From a virus (taxonomy: Duplodnaviria > Heunggongvirae > Uroviricota > Caudoviricetes): 10,779 nt of DNA. Positions 473-10,779 of the stretch are shown here, one piece after another; position 1 is the stretch's first letter, and each line of letters opens with the position of its first letter. A model generated the notes under the pieces. That model saw only the letters and a list, made by a program, of their open reading frames with translations, was not told the DNA's origin and did no database searches. The stretch lies in the IMG/VR virus record IMGVR_UViG_2690316099_000007. One strand, 5' to 3'. A program made the position numbers and the translations under genes.

Positions 473-1880
473 TACTCCGGCAATTCTGCCTGTTAATTCT
501 GAGGTAAAGGCAAGCTCATCTGATTGTTTCCCCTGTGTGAAGCTGGCAGATCATGCCACGGGATATCTTCTGAAGAGTGAACGCCGGAGGCGTGTTNNNN
601 NNNNNNNNNNNNNNNNNNNNNNNNNNNNNNNNNNNNNNNNNNNNNNNNNNNNNNNNNNNNNNNNNNNNNNNNNNNNNNNNNNNNNNNNNNNNNNNNNNNN
701 NNNNNNNNNNNNNNNNNNNNNNNNNNNNNNNNNNNNNNNNNNNNNNNNNNNNNNNNNNNNNNNNNNNNNNNNNNNNNNNNNNNNNNNNNNNNNNNNNNNN
801 NNNNNNNNNNNNNNNNNNNNNNNNNNNNNNNNNNNNNNNNNNNNNNNNNNNNNNNNNNNNNNNNNNNNNNNNNNNNNNNNNNNNNNNNNNNNNNNNNNNN
901 NNNNNNNNNNNNNNNNNNNNNNNNNNNNNNNNNNNNNNNNNNNNNNNNNNNNNNNNNNNNNNNNNNNNNNNNNNNNNNNNNNNNNNNNNNNNNNNNNNNN
1001 NNNNNNNNNNNNNNNNNNNNNNNNNNNNNNNNNNNNNNNACTTATAGATTTACTATAGCATTGTATTATTTGNNNNNNNNNNNNNNNNNNNNNNNNNNNN
1101 NNNNNNNNNNNNNNNNNNNNNNNNNNNNNNNNNNNNNNNNNNNNNNNNNNNNNNNNNNNNNNNNNNNNNNNNNNNNNNNNNNNNNNNNNNNNNNNNNNNN
1201 NNNNNNNNNNNNNNNNNNNNNNNNNNNNNNNNNNNNNNNNNNNNNNNNNNNNNNNNNNNNNNNNNNNNNNNNNNNNNNNNNNNNNNNNNNNNNNNNNNNN
1301 NNNNNNNNNNNNNNNNNNNNNNNNNNNNNNNNNNNNNNNNNNNNNNNNNNNNNNNNNNNNNNNNNNNNNNNNNNNNNNNNNNNNNNNNNNNNNNNNNNNN
1401 NNNNNNNNNNNNNNNNNNNNNNNNNNNNNNNNNNNNNNNNNNNNNNNNNNNNNNNNNNNNNNNNNNNNNNNNNNNNNNNNNNNNNNNNNNNNNNNNNNNN
1501 NNNNNNNNNNNNNNNNNNNNNNNNNNNNNNNNNNNNNNNNNNTTGAAATTATACTGGATAGCGGTGTTTCCAAAGCTCCCCCAGCGTAAGGCATTCTNNN
1601 NNNNNNNNNNNNNNNNNNNNNNNNNNNNNNNNNNNNNNNNNNNNNNNNNNNNNNNNNNNNNNNNNNNNNNNNNNNNNNNNNNNNNNNNNNNNNNNNNNNN
1701 NNNNNNNNNNNNNNNNNNNNNNNNNNNNNNNNNNNNNNNNNNNNNNNNNNNNNNNNNNNNNNNNNNNNNNNNNNNNNNNNNNNNNNNNNNNNNNNNNNNN
1801 NNNNNNNNNNNNNNNNNNNNNNNNNNNNNNNNNNNNNNNNNNNNNNNNNNNNNNNNNNNNNNNNNNNNNNNNNNNNNNNN

Positions 1881-2695
1881 ATTTCTTCACACTGCTTTTT
1901 CCAAAGTGGATAATGTTTTTCTTTATAAAGAGAAATATCATCTGCTGATACAGGGAAATACTCCTGTTGACTAAATGACTTGATGATTTTTTCTAGTGAT
2001 TGTGGGGTAGTTTGTTCATTGTCAAAGTTTGTAACCAATGGGAATGCATCCGTTAGTTGACAAAGCAAATTATCAACTTCATATTCAGATAAAGCTGTAT
2101 AATAAGGAAGTACAATATTTAATTGCTCGTCATCGGCTACTTTAATGCTGAAATCGGGCATAGACTGAGTGAATTGCTTCAGNNNNNNNNNNNNNNNNNN
2201 NNNNNNNNNNNNNNNNNNNNNNNNNNNNNNNATTTGTTTATCCTTTTCATCTGGCTCAGCAGGAAGCAACCATGAAGAAGGCACTTTATAGCAGATTATA
2301 TTATGTTTTATTGCTGAAAAACGTGGACCGCTATCATTGGTAATGATTGCCACCTCCGAATCTGGATCGTCAGCGCAATANNNNNNNNNNNNNNNNNNNN
2401 NNNNNNNNNNNNNNNNNNNNNNNNNNNNNNNNNNNNNNNNNNNNNNNNNNNNNNNNNNNNNNNNNNNNNNNNNNNNNNNNNNNNNNNNNNNNNNNNNNNN
2501 NNNNNNNNNNNNNNNNNNNNNNNNNNNNNNNNNNNNNNNNNNNNNNNNNNNNNNNNNNNNNNNNNNNNNNNNNNNNNNNNNNNNNNNNNNNNNNNNNNNN
2601 NNNNNNNNNNNNNNNNNNNNNNNNNNNNNNNNNNNNNNNNNNNNNNNNNNNNNNNGCCTTGTAATAATGATACATACTTCATCACAAGCAGTAAT
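1881..2695 (-). CDS. AT-rich cargo gene, unknown function (visible in three fragments: 2695-2656, 2380-2232, 2182-1881)
   Basis: Seen in sequence: one minus-strand frame is open across all 100 codons of 1881-2182 and all 49 codons of 2232-2380 despite AT-rich composition, while every + frame has stops there. Visible peptides: ...YCADDPDSEVAIITNDSGPRFSAIKHNIICYKVPSSWLLPAEPDEKDKQ... and ...LKQFTQSMPDFSIKVADDEQLNIVLPYYTALSEYEVDNLLCQLTDAFPLVTNFDNEQTTPQSLEKIIKSFSQQEYFPVSADDISLYKEKHYPLWKKQCEE.... No family recognised. True start and stop are masked, and whether the fragments are one gene or more is unknown. Confidence 0.45.
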
Positions 2696-3040
2696 NNNNN
2701 NNNNNNNNNNNNNNNNNNNNNNNNNNNNNNNNNNNNNNNNNNNNNNNNNNNNNNNNNNNNNNNNNNNNNNNNNNNNNNNNNNNNNNNNNNNNNNNNNNNN
2801 NNNNNNNNNNNNNNNNNNNNNNNNNNNNNNNNNNNNNNNNNNNNNNNNNNNNNNNNNNNNNNNNNNNNNNNNNNNNNNNNNNNNNNNNNNNNNNNNNNNN
2901 NNNNNNNNNNNNNNNNNNNNNNNNNNNNNNNNNNNNNNNNNNNNNNNNNNNNNNNNNNNNNNNNNNNNNNNNNNNNNNNNNNNNNNNNNNNNNNNNNNNN
3001 NNNNNNNNNNNNNNNNNNNNNNNNNNNNNNNNNNNNNNNN

Positions 3041-4144
3041 TGTTTCTGCTATCCATTCCGGGATTTTTGCCTCAAGCTCAAGCTGCGTGGTAAAGCCGCT
3101 GTTATCAATGGTGTGCTCGGCTTTTGCAATAATCCAGTCCTGATTATCAATCTCGCTTTTAAATCCTGTTACCGTGCCATGCATTTCGGGGTAGAGTTCT
3201 GCACGTCCATGCGCCAGTGTGATGGAGAATGATGCGGCTCCGCGTTGTAGCTGCTGCCACTTTGCCGCCGCTGCACGTCTTGCTGCCTGCTCGTTCTGAT
3301 AAGTTTTGCGTAACACAAACACGTTGCCTTCCGCACCTTCCATATAGTCGCCTTCCCGGCTGCTGCTTTTCTCCTTTTTTGGTTTTGACGGTTTGCGGCG
3401 TTTCACGCTGACTTTTTTCTTTTTCCCGTAATTAAGATCAAGCCAGTAAGCGCGTACCCCCGTATACGCTTCGCGGTCAGCAATGCGGAACTGATGGCGA
3501 TCGCCGCTGCTGCGTGTGATGGCGAACGAGGGCAACGGCTGGCCCTGTGCGTTCACGCCACCACCGGGCATGATGAATAACAGATTACCGCTTTTTACCG
3601 TGGTGATTGCGCCCAGCATTTCCGCCATGCGCGTAAGGAAGGACATGTCGCTTTCTTCGGTCTGGTCGGCGTGGTCGATTTCGATATCCATCAGCATTTC
3701 GCTGATTTGCGGTTTCAGACCATACCGATGAGCGATGGCGGATACCACACGCTCAACGGTCACATCATGCCAGGACACCTCACGTTTAACGTTAAATTCA
3801 GCCCGAAAATCTGCGCTTCTGGCTGAAACAGTCAGCCTGTCCGGCGGTCCTTCGTGAGCGATTTCATCAACAATGTAAGTGCCTTTTTCTGTCAGCGGTT
3901 CTCCCTTCCAGCCAATGAGAACCGTCAGGCGCGCGCCCCGTGGCGGTAGCTGCAACTGACCATCCGCATCATCCAGCGTGATGGTGAGCTGGTCCGCCTC
4001 AAATCCCCGGTTGTCGGTCAGTGACAGGCTCATCAGGCGCTCTGCCACGCCTGACAGCGTTTTACCCTCCGCGAGAATATCAAAATCCGGCATTTTCACG
4101 GGGTCTGTGCCCTGACTGAGCAATTGCATGGTGGTGTCGGTCAT
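3041..4144 (-). CDS. D: P2 gpD-like tail protein (phage late control D family), 3' end masked
   Basis: Translation MTDTTMQLLSQGTDPVKMPDFDILAEGKTLSGVAERLMSLSLTDNRGFEADQLTITLDDADGQLQLPPRGARL... matches the gpD-family N-terminal signature as recalled. ATG at 4144-4142 with GGAGG Shine-Dalgarno 6 nt upstream. 368 codons are visible before the mask at 3040; P2 gpD is about 387 aa as recalled, so the stop probably lies just inside 2696-3040. The 1241-aa track ORF 551-4276 is an artefact of translating N runs. Confidence 0.85.
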
Positions 4145-4301: not shown

Positions 4302-5486
4302 ATGAGTGAAACTCGTTTTCATGGTGCCCGTGTTACGGAAAATACCGACCTGGTAACAGCGATTAACGATGTTGATTCCAGCGTTATCGGTATCGTGGCA
4401 ACGGCGGATGATGCGGACGCGGAGCTGTTCCCGCTGAACAAGCCCACACTGCTGCCCCGCGTCAATGACGTGCTGGGAAAATGCGGAACAACGGGGACGC
4501 TTTATCGTGCGCTTAAGGCCATCGCAGACCAGGTGAGCACAAAGGTGATCGTCGTTCGCGTGGCTGAACACAAAGAAGAAGACGGAAAAACGCAGGATCA
4601 ACTGGTTATCGGTGGTTCTGAATCTGACGGCAGCTATACGGGGATGTATGCGCTGCTTGTTGCAGAGCAGGATGAAAGCATCGGATACCGTCCGCGTATT
4701 CTGGCCGCGCCGGAGCTGGACACGGAGGCGGTGACAAAATCCCTGTGCGTGATTGCGGGTAAACTGCGCGCGTTTGTGTATGCCTCATGTCATGACTGTA
4801 ACACGATGGCTGAGGCAATTACCTACCGCCAGAAATTCAACGAACGTGAGGTGATGCTCTTATGGCCGGACTTCATCGCCTACAACCCGAAAAGTGGCAA
4901 AAACGAAACGTTCCCCGCGCCTGCCTATGCGTGCGGCCTTCGTGCGTACATTGACCATGAGCAGGGCTGGCACAAATCGCTGTCCAACGTTCCGGTTAAA
5001 AATGTGCTGGGGATGTCCAGGCATGTGTTCTGGTCGTTGCAGGCCGAAGACAGTGATGCCAACAGCCTCAACAACAAAGAAATCACGACCATTATTCGTC
5101 GCAACGGGTTCCGCTTCTGGGGCAACCGCACACCGGAAACGAACGCCTACATCTTTGAGGTGTATACCCGAACCGCACAGGTGCTGGCTGATTCAATTGC
5201 GGAAGCGCAGTTTGAAACCATCGACAGTCCACTGACGCCTGCGAACGTGAAGGATGTTATCGGTGCCATCAGGGCAAAACTGGATTCACTGGTTACTGCC
5301 GGGAAACTGATTGGGGCGTCGTGCTGGTATGACGTGGTGGATAACGGCACCACGAATTTACGTCAGGGGCGCGTGCGTATTCGCTACAAATATACGCCTG
5401 TTCCCCCGCTGGAAGACATGGAGCTTTACCAGTCGTTTACTGATGAATTCTTTGGTCCCGCATTTGCGGTGCTGGGAGGTGCCTGA
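4302..5486 (+). CDS. FI: Contractile tail sheath protein (P2 gpFI family)
   Basis: 394-aa ORF with AAGGGG Shine-Dalgarno 8 nt upstream. Conserved FI motifs as recalled from P2: FPLNKP, LRAF.YAS, IRRNGFRFWGNRT, YTRTAQV, YTPVPPLE. Stop TGA overlaps the FII start (ATGA). Confidence 0.95.
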   Translation: MSETRFHGARVTENTDLVTAINDVDSSVIGIVATADDADAELFPLNKPTLLPRVNDVLGKCGTTGTLYRALKAIADQVSTKVIVVRVAEHKEEDGKTQDQLVIGGSESDGSYTGMYALLVAEQDESIGYRPRILAAPELDTEAVTKSLCVIAGKLRAFVYASCHDCNTMAEAITYRQKFNEREVMLLWPDFIAYNPKSGKNETFPAPAYACGLRAYIDHEQGWHKSLSNVPVKNVLGMSRHVFWSLQAEDSDANSLNNKEITTIIRRNGFRFWGNRTPETNAYIFEVYTRTAQVLADSIAEAQFETIDSPLTPANVKDVIGAIRAKLDSLVTAGKLIGASCWYDVVDNGTTNLRQGRVRIRYKYTPVPPLEDMELYQSFTDEFFGPAFAVLGGA

Positions 5487-5998
5487 TGGCTGTACCAAAA
5501 CATCTTCGCTTTTTTACGCTGTTTGTGGATGGTGAAAACGAAGTGGGTAAGGTGACGTCCGTCACTCTGCCTAAGCTGACGCGCAAAACCGACAGCTACC
5601 GGGGTGGTGGCATGATGGGAGCGGTAAGTATTGATCTCGGCCTGGATGACTCCGCGCTTGATGCGAGCTTTGTCATGGGGGGCGCAGTTCGTGAGCTGTT
5701 CCTTAAGTATGGCGGCACGATTGACGGTACGCTGCTGCGTTTTGCGGGTGAATACTACACCGACGCTGAAAGCGACCTGTATGAAGTCGAAATGCGCGGA
5801 CGTGTGACGGAAATTGATATGGGGGAAGCCAAACAGGGCGAAGCCACATCACACACTTACGCCATTAAAAACACCTACTACAAGCTGAGTGTTAACGATC
5901 GCCCGTTGTGGGAGATTGACCTGCTGAACTTCATTTACCGGAAGGACGGCAGGGACATTGTGCCCGATCGCATCCGTTCCGCGCTCGGGCTTGGCTGA
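5486..5998 (+). CDS. FII: Tail tube protein (P2 gpFII family)
   Basis: 170-aa ORF translationally coupled to FI, with GGGAGG Shine-Dalgarno. Motifs VTLPKLTRK, GLDD, MRGR..EIDMGE.KQGE match the P2 FII tube protein as recalled. Confidence 0.95.
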   Translation: MAVPKHLRFFTLFVDGENEVGKVTSVTLPKLTRKTDSYRGGGMMGAVSIDLGLDDSALDASFVMGGAVRELFLKYGGTIDGTLLRFAGEYYTDAESDLYEVEMRGRVTEIDMGEAKQGEATSHTYAIKNTYYKLSVNDRPLWEIDLLNFIYRKDGRDIVPDRIRSALGLG

Positions 5999-6052
5999 TA
6001 AGTAATATGCAGGCGGCGCAGTGCGTCGCCTCTGACTGAAAGGAGTTTCCTG

Positions 6053-6410
6053 ATGAAAGAGACGAAAAACATCGATACCGAAAACACGGTCGTTGCTGAC
6101 ACTGTGAAAGAAACCAGTGAGCGTGGCGTAAAACTTACCCAACCAATTGAGCGAGGCGGCGAAAAAATCACGTATGTGGAGATCACCGGGGCTATTGAGC
6201 AGGCTGGNNNNNNNNNNNNNNNNNNNNNNNNNNNNNNNNNNNNNNNNNNNNNNTGTCGCTGTCTGATGTGCTGAATTTGAAAGCGGAATCCATGTTTACG
6301 CTGCTGTCACGCGTGACATCACCGCGACTGGATGAAGTGACGATCAAAAAAATGGCATCCCGTGACTTTATTCAGTTATGTGTGGTTGCCGTAAATTTTT
6401 TGAGCGGTGC
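6053..6410 (+). CDS. E: Tail assembly chaperone gpE (P2 E family); 3' end masked and frame discontinuous across the 6208-6253 mask
   Basis: ATG at 6053 with AAGGAG Shine-Dalgarno; N-terminus MKETKNIDTENTVVADTVKETSERGVKLTQPIERGGEKITYVEITGAIEQAG. After the 46-nt mask the E-like peptide continues in a different frame (...LSLSDVLNLKAESMFTLLSRVTSPRLDEVTIKKMASRDFIQLCVVAVNFLSG) up to the slippery site. Position between FII and T fits P2 gene order. Confidence 0.7.
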
Positions 6411-6710
6411 NNNNNNNNNNNNNNNNNNNNNNNNNNNNNNNNNNNNNNNNNNNNNNNNNNNNNNNNNNNNNNNNNNNNNNNNNNNNNNNNNNNNNNNNNN
6501 NNNNNNNNNNNNNNNNNNNNNNNNNNNNNNNNNNNNNNNNNNNNNNNNNNNNNNNNNNNNNNNNNNNNNNNNNNNNNNNNNNNNNNNNNNNNNNNNNNNN
6601 NNNNNNNNNNNNNNNNNNNNNNNNNNNNNNNNNNNNNNNNNNNNNNNNNNNNNNNNNNNNNNNNNNNNNTCTTGATATCCGGGTCGCTTTCAGCGCCGTT
6701 GACAGGCTGA
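6053..6710 (+). CDS. E+E' frameshift-extended tail chaperone (-1 slip at 6396-6402, E' frame ends 6710)
   Basis: The -1 frame relative to E is open from the slippery site through the mask to a stop at 6710 (track ORF 6378-6710, C-terminus ...LISGSLSAPLTG), overlapping the start of T as in P2. Most of E' is masked. Confidence 0.45.
6396..6402 (+). promoter_or_regulatory. Programmed -1 ribosomal frameshift slippery heptamer T_TTT_TTG (E to E')
   Basis: Seen in sequence: TTTTTTG lies in X_XXY_YYZ register in the E reading frame (AAT TTT TTG). The -1 frame from here (FFERC...) stays open to a stop at 6708-6710. The P2 E/E' frameshift in the FETUD operon uses the same heptamer (established knowledge). 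Confidence 0.6.
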
Positions 6711-9490
6711 CCCGGCCTGCCGAAAACGCCCGCCGCCTGATGGGGCAGTTTGGTGACTCCATCCAGCGAACGCAGGGGGCGATCAAAAATCTCGAGCGTC
6801 AGGCGCGTTCATTTGAGCGCGCCCGTGACGCTGTCAGTAAAGCGGATGCGGGCATCGTGAAAGCACGACGCCAGCTTAACGCCCTTAATCAGTTACAACG
6901 CACGGGTACAGTGCTCAGCGAAAAACAACAAAAGCTGATGCAGCAGTTAAGCACCCGGCTTGAACGCCTGAATGAATCGCGCACACGGGAAATTCAGAAA
7001 ATGCGGGAACTTGGCGGAGAGCTGAAACGCCACGGCATTTCCCTGACAGGCAGCGATAACACCATCCAGCAGGCCATCAGACGCACCGGACAATACAACA
7101 ACCAGCTTGAACGCGAACGGCGGGCGCTTGCGCGTGTAACGCAGGCGCGTGAGCGGTATTCACGCGCGCAGGAAACAGCGGGAAAACTGAAAACAGGTGG
7201 TGCGCTGGCAACAGGTGCGGCGGCAGCGGGCGGCTATGCTGCCGGGCGTTTTTTGCAGCCCGCTATCGGGTTCGGGAAAGAGATGTCCCGTGTTCAGGCA
7301 CTGACGCGAATCGATAAAAACAGCCCGCAGTTTAAGGCGCTGCGTGAGCAGGCGTTAAAACTTGGCTCTGAAACGCAGTTCACCGCAGGCGATGCCGCCA
7401 GTGGACAGGCATTTCTTGCAATGGCTGGTTTCACACCGCAGGCCATTCAGGCTGCGCTTCCCGGCGTGCTGAGCATGGCAACGGCTGGCGGTATGGACCT
7501 CGGCGAGACGGCGGATATTGGTTCCAATATCCTGACGCAGTTCGGCCTCTCTGCTGACCAGATGGACCGGGTCGGTGACACACTTACCGCAGCGTTTACC
7601 CGTACCAACACTGACCTTCGCGCACTGGGCGAAACCATGAAATATGCAGGTCCGGTGGCGGGTAAGCTGGGAATATCGCTGGAGCAGGCCGCAGCGATGG
7701 CGGGCGTGCTGGCGAAGATGGGTATCAGGGGGAGTGATGCAGGTACAGCGTTGCGTAAAAGCCTGGCCAATCTGTCATCACCGCCAAAGGCAGCGGCAGA
7801 AGCACTGAAAGAGCTGGGGGTGTCAGTTGCTGACGCCAAAGGCAAAATGCGCCCGATGGAGAATGTGCTGGCCGATCTCTATAAAGCCACCCGCAAATAC
7901 GGGGAGGTTGACCGGGTATCGTTCTTTAAGGACATTGCCGGAGAAGAGGCTTTCACATCATTTATGGGCCTCGTTGATGCGGCAGGTGACGGCTTCTTAG
8001 CCAAACTGAGAAAAGAACTTGAAGGCGCGCGCGGTGAGGCAGAACGCACGGCAAAGGTTATGGCCAATAACCTTGATGGCAACCTGAAATCACTCGGCAG
8101 TGCATGGGAAGGTCTGCGTATTCGCATCAGTGATCTGGTTGACGGTCCGCTGCGTTCTGTCACGCAGTGGCTCACGCGGGTTGTCTCAAAGGTGACGGCG
8201 CTGGCGCAGGCCCACCCGGCACTGACGCGCCAGTTACTGATAGCGGGAGGCGCACTGCTGGCGACAACAGCAACGGTTGGTTCGTTGTCTCTGGTTATTG
8301 GGGTGCTTCACGGGAAGCTGGCTACGTTGCGTCTCGGTTTTTCTCTCCTGACCGAATCAATGAATGTTGTCAGGGTTCTGCCTGCATTATGGGGAATGGT
8401 GACGGGTTCCGTTTCTTTACTTGGTGGCGCTATCGGGGCGCTGTTCAGTCCGGTTAGTCTTATCGTGGCTGCGCTTGCCGGAGCTGCCGTTCTTATCTGG
8501 AAATACTGGGATCCCATCAGGGCATTTTTTGCCGGGGTGTTCAGCGGGATTATGGAAAGGCTGACCCCGTTGCGCGAAACCTTTGAACGGTTTGGCCCTG
8601 TTTTTGATGTCGTGCGCGATGGGATTATTCAGGTCTTTAACTGGTTTAAATCGCTGCTGTCACCGATGGAGTCCAGCAAGGAAACGCTGGATAAATGTGC
8701 CAGTGCTGGCGAGATATTCGGTAACGTTCTTGGCGGTGCGTTACAACTTGTTCTGACACCTGCAAAAATGCTACTGGATACGCTGGCGTGGATACTTGAA
8801 AAACTTGGCGTCCTTCCGGATGAAGCGGAAAGGGCGCGCAAGAAAATCGAAGACGCACAGCGTGCGGCCATTCTTCAGGACAAGGTTGCCTTGCTTCAGG
8901 GGAACCTGGCGAAAATCAATCCGCCGAAGCCTGTGGAAAATGGCAATGGCACCGGAGGTGATAAACCCAAAGACAACAAACCGCTCACAGACAGCAATAC
9001 CGGGACGCTACGCAGACTCAGCAAAATTGCTGATAACACAGGTAAGCTGGTTGATGAGACGAAAAAACGCATTGGCCCCGGCGATATTGTCTTTAAGAAC
9101 CTGCCCCGCGCACTTGCTGTTCGTGGGGAGTGGCAGGAGCGGAAGATTGCGCAGGTCAGTAAGCCTGCCCCCGCAATTAATATCACACCCGTGGTCCCGG
9201 CTCCGCTGCCTCCGGCGCTGGTCCCTGTTGTTGCGGCCAGCTCCCGCCCGGTGGCGNNNNNNNNNNNNNNNNNNGCGGAGGCCATACGCTCTCCAGTGGC
9301 ATCAGTTCCTGTAACTTCCCGTAACCGGGAGCCTGTTGCCTCCGGATTTGGTGGTGAAATTCATGTTCATCTGCATAACGTTGTTACGCAGAATCCCCGC
9401 GAACTGGCGAAACTGGTCGGTGAAATGGTCAGGGCAGAAATGGAACGGCGCGCCCGTGCCGGGCGTGGCAGTTTTTACGATAAAGATTGA
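6407..9490 (+). CDS. T: Tail tape measure protein (P2 gpT family); true start lies inside the mask 6411-6669
   Basis: Continuous frame from 6671 to TGA at 9488-9490, about 940 visible codons. Coiled-coil-like N-region (QLNALNQLQRTG..., ERERRALARV), a glycine/alanine-rich hydrophobic segment (LLIAGGALLATTATVGSLSLVIGVL...AALAGAAVLIWKYW) typical of tape measure proteins, and gene order E-T-U. Frame is maintained across the 18-nt mask at 9257-9274. Confidence 0.9.
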   Translation: MXXXXXXXXXXXXXXXXXXXXXXXXXXXXXXXXXXXXXXXXXXXXXXXXXXXXXXXXXXXXXXXXXXXXXXXXXXXXXXXXXXXXXXXLDIRVAFSAVDRLTRPAENARRLMGQFGDSIQRTQGAIKNLERQARSFERARDAVSKADAGIVKARRQLNALNQLQRTGTVLSEKQQKLMQQLSTRLERLNESRTREIQKMRELGGELKRHGISLTGSDNTIQQAIRRTGQYNNQLERERRALARVTQARERYSRAQETAGKLKTGGALATGAAAAGGYAAGRFLQPAIGFGKEMSRVQALTRIDKNSPQFKALREQALKLGSETQFTAGDAASGQAFLAMAGFTPQAIQAALPGVLSMATAGGMDLGETADIGSNILTQFGLSADQMDRVGDTLTAAFTRTNTDLRALGETMKYAGPVAGKLGISLEQAAAMAGVLAKMGIRGSDAGTALRKSLANLSSPPKAAAEALKELGVSVADAKGKMRPMENVLADLYKATRKYGEVDRVSFFKDIAGEEAFTSFMGLVDAAGDGFLAKLRKELEGARGEAERTAKVMANNLDGNLKSLGSAWEGLRIRISDLVDGPLRSVTQWLTRVVSKVTALAQAHPALTRQLLIAGGALLATTATVGSLSLVIGVLHGKLATLRLGFSLLTESMNVVRVLPALWGMVTGSVSLLGGAIGALFSPVSLIVAALAGAAVLIWKYWDPIRAFFAGVFSGIMERLTPLRETFERFGPVFDVVRDGIIQVFNWFKSLLSPMESSKETLDKCASAGEIFGNVLGGALQLVLTPAKMLLDTLAWILEKLGVLPDEAERARKKIEDAQRAAILQDKVALLQGNLAKINPPKPVENGNGTGGDKPKDNKPLTDSNTGTLRRLSKIADNTGKLVDETKKRIGPGDIVFKNLPRALAVRGEWQERKIAQVSKPAPAINITPVVPAPLPPALVPVVAASSRPVAXXXXXXAEAIRSPVASVPVTSRNREPVASGFGGEIHVHLHNVVTQNPRELAKLVGEMVRAEMERRARAGRGSFYDKD

Positions 9491-10037: not shown

Positions 10038-10683
10038 CCTGACTCTTCTCTATTGTTCCGATTGATTCTCCTGCGGGGTGGTAACGATAAATCGTCGATA
10101 TACCAATGCCGTAAATTATTGCCAGTTGTTTTCTGTCGTGCCCGTTTTTGATCAGCCTTGCTATTTGCTCATGCTGTTCTTTTGTCAGCTTCGGTCGACG
10201 TCCNNNNNNNNNNNNNNNNNNNNNNNNNNNNNNNNNNNNNNNNNNNNNNNNNNNNNNNNNNNNNNNNNNNNNNNNNNNNNNNNNNNNNNNNNNNNNNNNN
10301 NNNNNNNNNNNNNNNNNNNNNNNNNNNNNNNNNNNNNNNNNNNNNNNNNNNNNNNNNNNNNNNNNNNNNNNNNNNNNNNNNNNNNNNNNNNNNNNNNNNN
10401 NNNNNNNNNNNNNNNNNNNNNNNNNNNNNNNNNNNNNNNNNNNNNNNNNNNNNNNNNNNNNNNNNNNNNNNNNNNNNNNNNNNNNNNNNNNNNNNNNNNN
10501 NNNNNNNNNNNNNNNNNNNNNNNNNNNNNNNNNNNNNNNNNNNNNNNNNNNNNNNNNNNNNNNNNNNNNNNNNNNNNNNNNNNNNNNNNNNNNNNNNNNN
10601 NNNNNNNNNNNNNNNNNNNNNNNNNNNNNNNNNNNNNNNGTATTCTGGTCATTTGTTGATACCCTTACATAGCCAATCAGCAC
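10027..10683 (-). CDS. Serine DNA invertase, Gin/Pin/Cin/Hin family (catalytic core masked)
   Basis: N-terminus from a GTG start at 10683 reads (M)LIGYVRVSTNDQN, the Gin/Pin N-terminal signature with the catalytic Ser in VRVS. C-terminal HTH region GRRPKLTKEQHEQIARLIKNGHDRKQLAIIYGIGISTIYRYHPA closely matches the Hin/Pin DNA-binding domain as recalled. GGGAGA Shine-Dalgarno 6 nt upstream. Middle 436 nt masked but frame is conserved across it. Confidence 0.9.
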   Translation of the reverse strand: MLIGYVRVSTNDQNXXXXXXXXXXXXXXXXXXXXXXXXXXXXXXXXXXXXXXXXXXXXXXXXXXXXXXXXXXXXXXXXXXXXXXXXXXXXXXXXXXXXXXXXXXXXXXXXXXXXXXXXXXXXXXXXXXXXXXXXXXXXXXXXXXXXXXXXXXXXXXXXXXGRRPKLTKEQHEQIARLIKNGHDRKQLAIIYGIGISTIYRYHPAGESIGTIEKSQETK

Positions 10684-10737: not shown

Positions 10738-10764
10738 TTATCTAAAACTGAGGTAGCCTGAGTT
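10738..10764. promoter_or_regulatory. Candidate invertase crossover site or promoter-operator (gix/hix-like half-site plus imperfect palindrome), truncated by window end
   Basis: Seen in sequence: TTATCTAAAAC (10738-10748) matches 10 of 11 positions of the recalled gix/hix half-site TTATC(C/A)AAAAC and lies about 55 bp upstream of the invertase start, where gixR sits relative to gin in Mu. It overlaps an imperfect dyad AAACTGAGG-TAG-CCTGAGTTT (10744-10764). The second half of a canonical 26-bp site is not clearly present. Confidence 0.25.
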
Positions 10765-10779
10765 TAACGGACACTCCTT

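Follow-up and report, generated by a model that had tools for sequence, protein, structure and literature searches.

The window considered here is a stretch of 10,779 nt from a tailed-phage record of IMG/VR (IMGVR_UViG_2690316099_000007, Caudoviricetes), one strand of which was analysed. Ten N runs interrupt it. One of these lies within the gene of the tail chaperone E, and the parts of E on its two sides are in different reading frames. The locus thus raises the question of whether the chaperone gene is broken or whether the N run has the wrong length. The sequence-only reading had named both alternatives: a genuine frameshift within the hidden bases, leaving a split or pseudogenised chaperone, or a mask that does not preserve length. 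On comparison with related genomes, the discontinuity is very probably (probability about 0.93) an artefact of the length of the N run and not a property of the gene, and the underlying locus would be an ordinary, intact E/E+E' pair. The features of the window are listed in Table 1.

Table 1. Features of the window. Lengths of N runs are given as they stand in the window and as found in genomes identical to the window at its unmasked bases.
Feature	Position	Strand	Length in window (nt)	Length in identical genomes (nt)	Excess (nt)	Remarks
N run	597-1039		443	358	85	
N run	1073-1542		470	377	93	
N run	1598-1880		283	247	36	
N run	2183-2231		49	19	30	
N run	2381-2655		275	242	33	
N run	2696-3040		345	312	33	
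N run	6208-6253		46	14	32	interrupts E
N run	6411-6669		259	198 (L127, L133, L134)	61	hides the final 12 codons of E and its stop, the bulk of E', and the first 8 nt of T with its ATG
N run	9257-9274		18	-3	21	in T
N run	10204-10639		436	367	69	in the invertase gene
PIN_4-domain gene (500 aa)	about 1040-2780	-				L127 7006-8508; mostly under N runs
D	3035-4144	-				upstream of the sheath gene
Tail sheath (FI-like, 394 aa)	4302..5486	+				ORF; exact protein in public assemblies; Pfam Phage_sheath_1; annotated in relatives
Tail tube (FII-like, 170 aa)	5486..5998	+				ORF; PF04985 Phage_tube; annotated in relatives; directly upstream of E
E, 5' part	6053..6207	+				codons 1-51 and GG of codon 52; identical to L127 up to 11906
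E, 3' part	6254..6410	+				TG at 6254-6255 ends codon 57; residues 58-109 from 6256; 100% identity to L127 11921-12077
Slippery site, -1 programmed frameshift (predicted)	6393..6402	+				T.TTT.TTG 6396-6402; overlapping A.AAT.TTT 6393-6399; both in the register of E
End of the -1 frame, E'	6670..6675	+				last sense codon and stop (6673-6675); overlaps the start of T; ORF 6268..6675
Tape-measure gene T	6670..9490	+				PF10145, PhageMin_Tail; 935 aa in identical genomes; first 8 nt with the start under an N run
Insertion sequence end	10747-10779					last 33 nt of the window

The apparent break in the reading frame of E

Translation from the ATG at 6053 gives a peptide that runs MKETKNID...AIEQA(G) up to 6207 (in full MKETKNIDTENTVVADTVKETSERGVKLTQPIERGGEKITYVEITGAIEQA) and then meets a codon of GG and N. 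Carried on across the 46 N, this frame hits stops immediately (CRCLMC, then stop). The C-terminal half of E is read from 6256 in another frame, as SLSDVLNLKAESMF...VAVNFLSG(A) (in full SLSDVLNLKAESMFTLLSRVTSPRLDEVTIKKMASRDFIQLCVVAVNFLSG). The N run is bordered by GCTATTGAGCAGGCTGG on the left and by TGTCGCTGTCTGATGTG on the right. When the 121-aa E protein of the related genome L127 was searched against the window with tblastn, frame 2 contained residues 1-52 (6053-6208) and frame 1 residues 58-109 (6256-6411), both with 100% identity. Exactly five residues are unaccounted for between the two halves. Translation and tblastn therefore bear out that the halves of E are out of frame across the 46-nt run. 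The five missing residues are the coding content of 14 hidden bases together with the partial codons at both sides.

The hidden bases in related genomes

Genomes identical to the window were found by a look-up of its exact sheath protein, which returned 10 public contigs. Three of these, L127 (CP026836.1), L133 (CP044151.1) and L134 (CP044191.1), agree with the window at all of its unmasked bases from position 91 on (8,065 of 8,155 nt). In each of them the 46 N of the window correspond to exactly 14 nt, ATCTCTGCGAGATT. The 14-nt stretch begins with the third base of the glycine codon G52, and the junction reads GG/A TCT CTG CGA GAT T/TG TCG, i.e., G-S-L-R-D-L-S (slashes mark the ends of the stretch). 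With these 14 nt inserted, E is one uninterrupted ORF of 121 aa (L127 11752-12117). This restores a single E frame that extends from 6053 as far as the slippery site, the outcome that the sequence-only reading had named as refuting a real frameshift; the bases that restore it come from genomes identical at the unmasked positions and are not the window's own hidden bases. Since 46 N stand for 14 nt, 32 positions are spurious (32 mod 3 = 2), and the downstream half of E therefore appears shifted.

The same spacing of 14 nt is present in L001, L002, L005, L113, L126-L131 and L133-L135. In pairwise BLAST alignments with relatives the flanks align right to the edges of the N run, with 14 nt between them there against 46 N in the window. 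The stretch from the tube gene to E is 98.1-98.6% identical at the nucleotide level to that of the P88-like phages PhiR44_2, P88 and 500465-2. It also matches 1,378 records of complete E. coli genomes (1,376 of 5,426 genomes), with identities up to 99.0%; in all best matches the 925-nt tube-E query covers 893 nt of the record. From the 1,355 matching records an evenly spread sample of 60 was drawn for the spacer. Both flanks were found in 36 of these, and all 36 matches span 174 nt for a query of 206 nt, which corresponds to a spacer of 14 nt. When IMG/VR was scanned for the two 17-nt flanks placed 1-29 nt apart, at least 120 contigs were returned, and every match listed has a spacer of 14 nt. 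Together with five other loci this amounts to 125 of 125 loci with 14 nt, in four sequence variants. A relative from Salmonella enterica, found with a 23-nt left flank, likewise has 14 nt.

A census was then made of 135 fetched loci, a set that includes the 10 contigs found with the sheath protein. All 135 fit the strict 14-nt pattern. One locus runs off its 3' end, which leaves 134 complete loci, and an intact E ORF of 121-124 aa crosses the spacer in 130 of them. L094 has no in-frame ATG for E under the ORF rule of the census. In three of the 135 relatives (L074, L121 and L132) the E frame does break, at positions other than the site of the N run. L132 (11752-12120) has a number of indels close by, and T and the fibre genes are fragmented, as tail genes are in that assembly generally, which suggests that the disruption reflects sequencing indel errors.

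The reconstructed E of L127 matches the family profile phrog_103 ('tail protein') in one stretch, with residues 6-120 on profile positions 6-118 of 119 (E = 1.8e-35). Set against the family in this way, the halves join with no residue absent or added. It is scarcely credible that the two halves are meant for different frames, be it by a second recoding event (a programmed frameshift or a bypass) or as two small genes within E. Such an arrangement would account for the frame offset in the window as given, its sole support, whereas the same codons make up one ORF in nearly every complete relative, the phrog_103 profile is collinear across the junction, and the left flank of the N run shows no slippery motif.

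A genuine frameshift, in which the N conceal some 32 additional bases, or an indel of another length that is not a multiple of three, and the chaperone is left split or pseudogenised in a decaying prophage, is very unlikely. The bases at 6208-6253 are hidden, and there are signs of decay elsewhere: an IS3-family transposase stands in the prophage of the identical genomes, the window has a private deletion of 143 nt, and E is truly disrupted in the three relatives named above, at other sites. Against this, every relative examined has a spacer of 14 nt; among them are the three genomes that agree with the window at all of the other 8,065 bases compared, in which the ORF is continuous. The same flanks at a distance of 30-60 nt were found neither in IMG/VR nor in 241 million JGI metagenome records. 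In addition, a comparable excess, about 30 nt, is seen at the nine other N runs, of which four lie wholly in the PIN-domain gene and one replaces nothing, so that a real insertion is not needed. The proposal of a pseudogenised chaperone finds no support, and the E gene is almost certainly intact and ordinary. A point against the artefact is that the window is not strictly identical to any public record, as it lacks 143 nt near 85-90 that all relatives carry; its hidden bases might therefore be different too.

The specific case of a real, frame-breaking insertion of 32 nt in E, with the chaperone split in a prophage eroded by an insertion sequence and by the deletion at its flank, is likewise very unlikely. 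If it were true, tail production, where retained, would have to do without the normal E/E+E'.

Lengths of the ten N runs

The excess over the replaced sequence is not peculiar to E. Compared with the identical genomes, all ten N runs of the window are longer than the sequence that they replace, by 21-93 nt (Table 1). The N do not constitute a length-faithful overwrite anywhere in the window. The suggestion of a mask that fails to preserve length is thus strongly supported for the run in E, and it applies to all ten runs and not to one. It had also been held that the masks elsewhere, in the invertase gene and in T, preserve the frame. This is correct insofar as the excesses there (69 and 21) are multiples of three, but the length is altered in both, and the runs at 6411-6669 (61) and 597-1039 (85) break the frame. 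Overall, 7 of the 10 excesses are divisible by three, a larger share than the one-third expected by chance, which is a further point against the artefact.

The run of 18 N in T is the extreme case. In the identical genomes its flanks overlap by 3 nt (GCG), so that the run replaces no sequence, and no bases lie between the flanks in any of the 67 relatives that have them. It looks like either a negative scaffold gap or a private in-frame insertion of 21 nt.

The excesses cluster near 31, 62 and 93, and the smallest unmasked island in the window measures 33 nt. It may be speculated that the overlong runs arose from deliberate masking with altered lengths, as padded masks that merge, or from estimates of scaffold gap sizes. 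A speculative form of the latter is that the N are scaffold gaps of a de Bruijn assembly, over-estimated by about k-1, which fits the clustering near these three values, the 33-nt island and the overlapping flanks. A further candidate, that the runs are hypervariable stretches left as ambiguous consensus blocks, was rejected; mismatch rates among relatives do not differ systematically between masked and unmasked parts.

The N runs of this window are unusable for arithmetic of frame or length. Where a 'frameshift', 'split gene' or 'oversized ORF' spans an N run, the call should carry no weight until unmasked relatives bear it out.

The probable E/E+E' pair and its prophage

The window represents one end of a P88-like prophage (Xuanwuvirus, P2-related), which begins just downstream of ihfA. 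The genes on the minus strand are, in order, hok, ogr, the 500-aa PIN_4 gene and D. Sheath, tube, E, E', T and U follow on the plus strand, and then a resolvase-type invertase. E lies between the tube gene and T, and the order of Pfam families in the identical genomes is Phage_tube, E, Phage_P2_GpE and PhageMin_Tail. D is on the strand opposite to the sheath gene, an order common to the group of the viable phage P88. In the identical genomes D has 1,110 nt, as against an annotated length of only 801 nt in several genomes of E. coli O111, O157 and others.

The reading of the gene as a gpE chaperone with an in-register slippery heptamer is supported. The heptamer TTTTTTG is read AAT TTT TTG in the frame of the C-terminal half of E, which is the X.XXY.YYZ register of a -1 slip site. 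In L127 the zero frame of E reaches its stop 52 nt beyond the slip site, and the -1 frame from T.TTT.TTG is open through E' (...VAVNFL-ERCGLWREERTGDGSLITVVCFEHIEDFVADIAAIFNWSPAEIFMMTPGEVVSWRERAALRSGNADNEDS), giving a fusion of 176 aa. E' of L127 ends at 12281 (window 6675) and T starts at 12268, with the stop of the fusion 14 nt past the start of T. The E+E' fusion of L127 matches PF06528 Phage_P2_GpE with 44.6 bits (cut-off 23, E = 9.7e-12). The match falls in the C-terminal part of the fusion, which in the window is under the N run at 6411-6669 with only 6670-6675 visible. To PF10109 Phage_TAC_7, the E/gp41/gp14 chaperones, the reconstructed E aligns across the junction with 17.2 bits, below the cut-off of 25 (E = 0.005).

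TTTTTTG is kept in register in 82 of 134 relatives. About 50 of 135 relatives (e.g., L087 and L003, mostly with the 124-aa allele of E) have GTA AAT TTT ATG instead of GTA AAT TTT TTG at the site homologous to 6391-6405. Among the relatives without T.TTT.TTG, the -1 frame is also open from an upstream run of seven A in 43-44; in the allele of the window a stop closes the frame from this run. A slip at the A7 run in these relatives was considered and set aside because 47 of them retain an in-register A.AAT.TTT at the homologous site.

In phage P2, a -1 shift at TTTTTTG yields a 91-aa E and a 142-aa E+E' from one start (Christie et al. 2002, cited in PMC3091744). Both products are described there as needed for tail assembly, again with reference to Christie 2002, and the E/E+E' type of frameshift arrangement as conserved among tailed phages (Xu, Hendrix and Duda 2004, cited in PMC3091744). 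The present locus resembles the FETUD operon of P2 in the position of E between the tube gene FII and the tape-measure gene T, in TTTTTTG in register with two predicted products of common N-terminus, and in an E' extension that matches Phage_P2_GpE and overlaps the start of T. It differs from P2 in the sizes of E and E+E' (121 and 176 aa here, against the P2 values from PMC3091744 given above), in the body of E, which here stays under the cut-off of PF10109, and in D, which in P2 FETUD is downstream of U and here lies ahead of the sheath gene and on the other strand. The Escherichia phages P88 and PhiR44_2 (Xuanwuvirus), whose protein is named GpE or 'P2 GpE family protein', share with the window the gene order, an E ORF of 366 nt and the sequence of the 14-nt spacer, with nucleotide identities of 98.2-98.6% over tube-E. 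Unlike these phages, the window continues with an invertase and an insertion sequence end, and it contains N runs. By arrangement the locus can also be likened to G/GT of phage lambda, with two overlapping ORFs between the major tail or tube gene and the tape-measure gene, a -1 frameshift and a common N-terminus. The slip site of lambda differs, and lambda is a siphovirus and not a phage with a contractile tail.

The PIN_4-domain gene, located between ogr and D, is missing from PhiR44_2 and from the prophage of the L001 type, which suggests cargo carried at a variable locus. Its protein had no match in a PADLOC scan. Close to the left end of the window, at 85-90, are missing the 143 nt that all fetched relatives carry just downstream of ihfA (L127 about 5952-6094), a piece with two terminator-like hairpins. 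The junction of this deletion, ...CGTTCCACT/CTGTGAGATAGG..., was found in none of 5,426 E. coli genomes and neither in IMG/VR nor in the JGI metagenomes. The 33 nt at the right end of the window adjoin other copies of a 385-aa transposase (HTH_Tnp_1 and rve) in L128, L133 and L134. In the identical genomes the IS3-family transposase follows directly after the invertase and interrupts the invertible tail-fibre region, and for this reason the prophage is probably defective at that region and not in E.

By analogy with P2 and lambda, E (121 aa) would be translated from the ATG at 6053, and at T.TTT.TTG (6396-6402) a fraction of the ribosomes would slip by -1 into E'. The product of this slip would be the 176-aa E+E', which ends at 6675 and overlaps the start of T. 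E and E+E' would then chaperone the tape measure in tail assembly, as do E/E+E' of P2 and G/GT of lambda; both the frameshifting and the chaperone role are thus inferred from the known systems. Judged by its sequence, the locus is an ordinary E/E+E' chaperone pair of the P2 type, in a very common family of Escherichia prophages carried by roughly one in four complete E. coli genomes.
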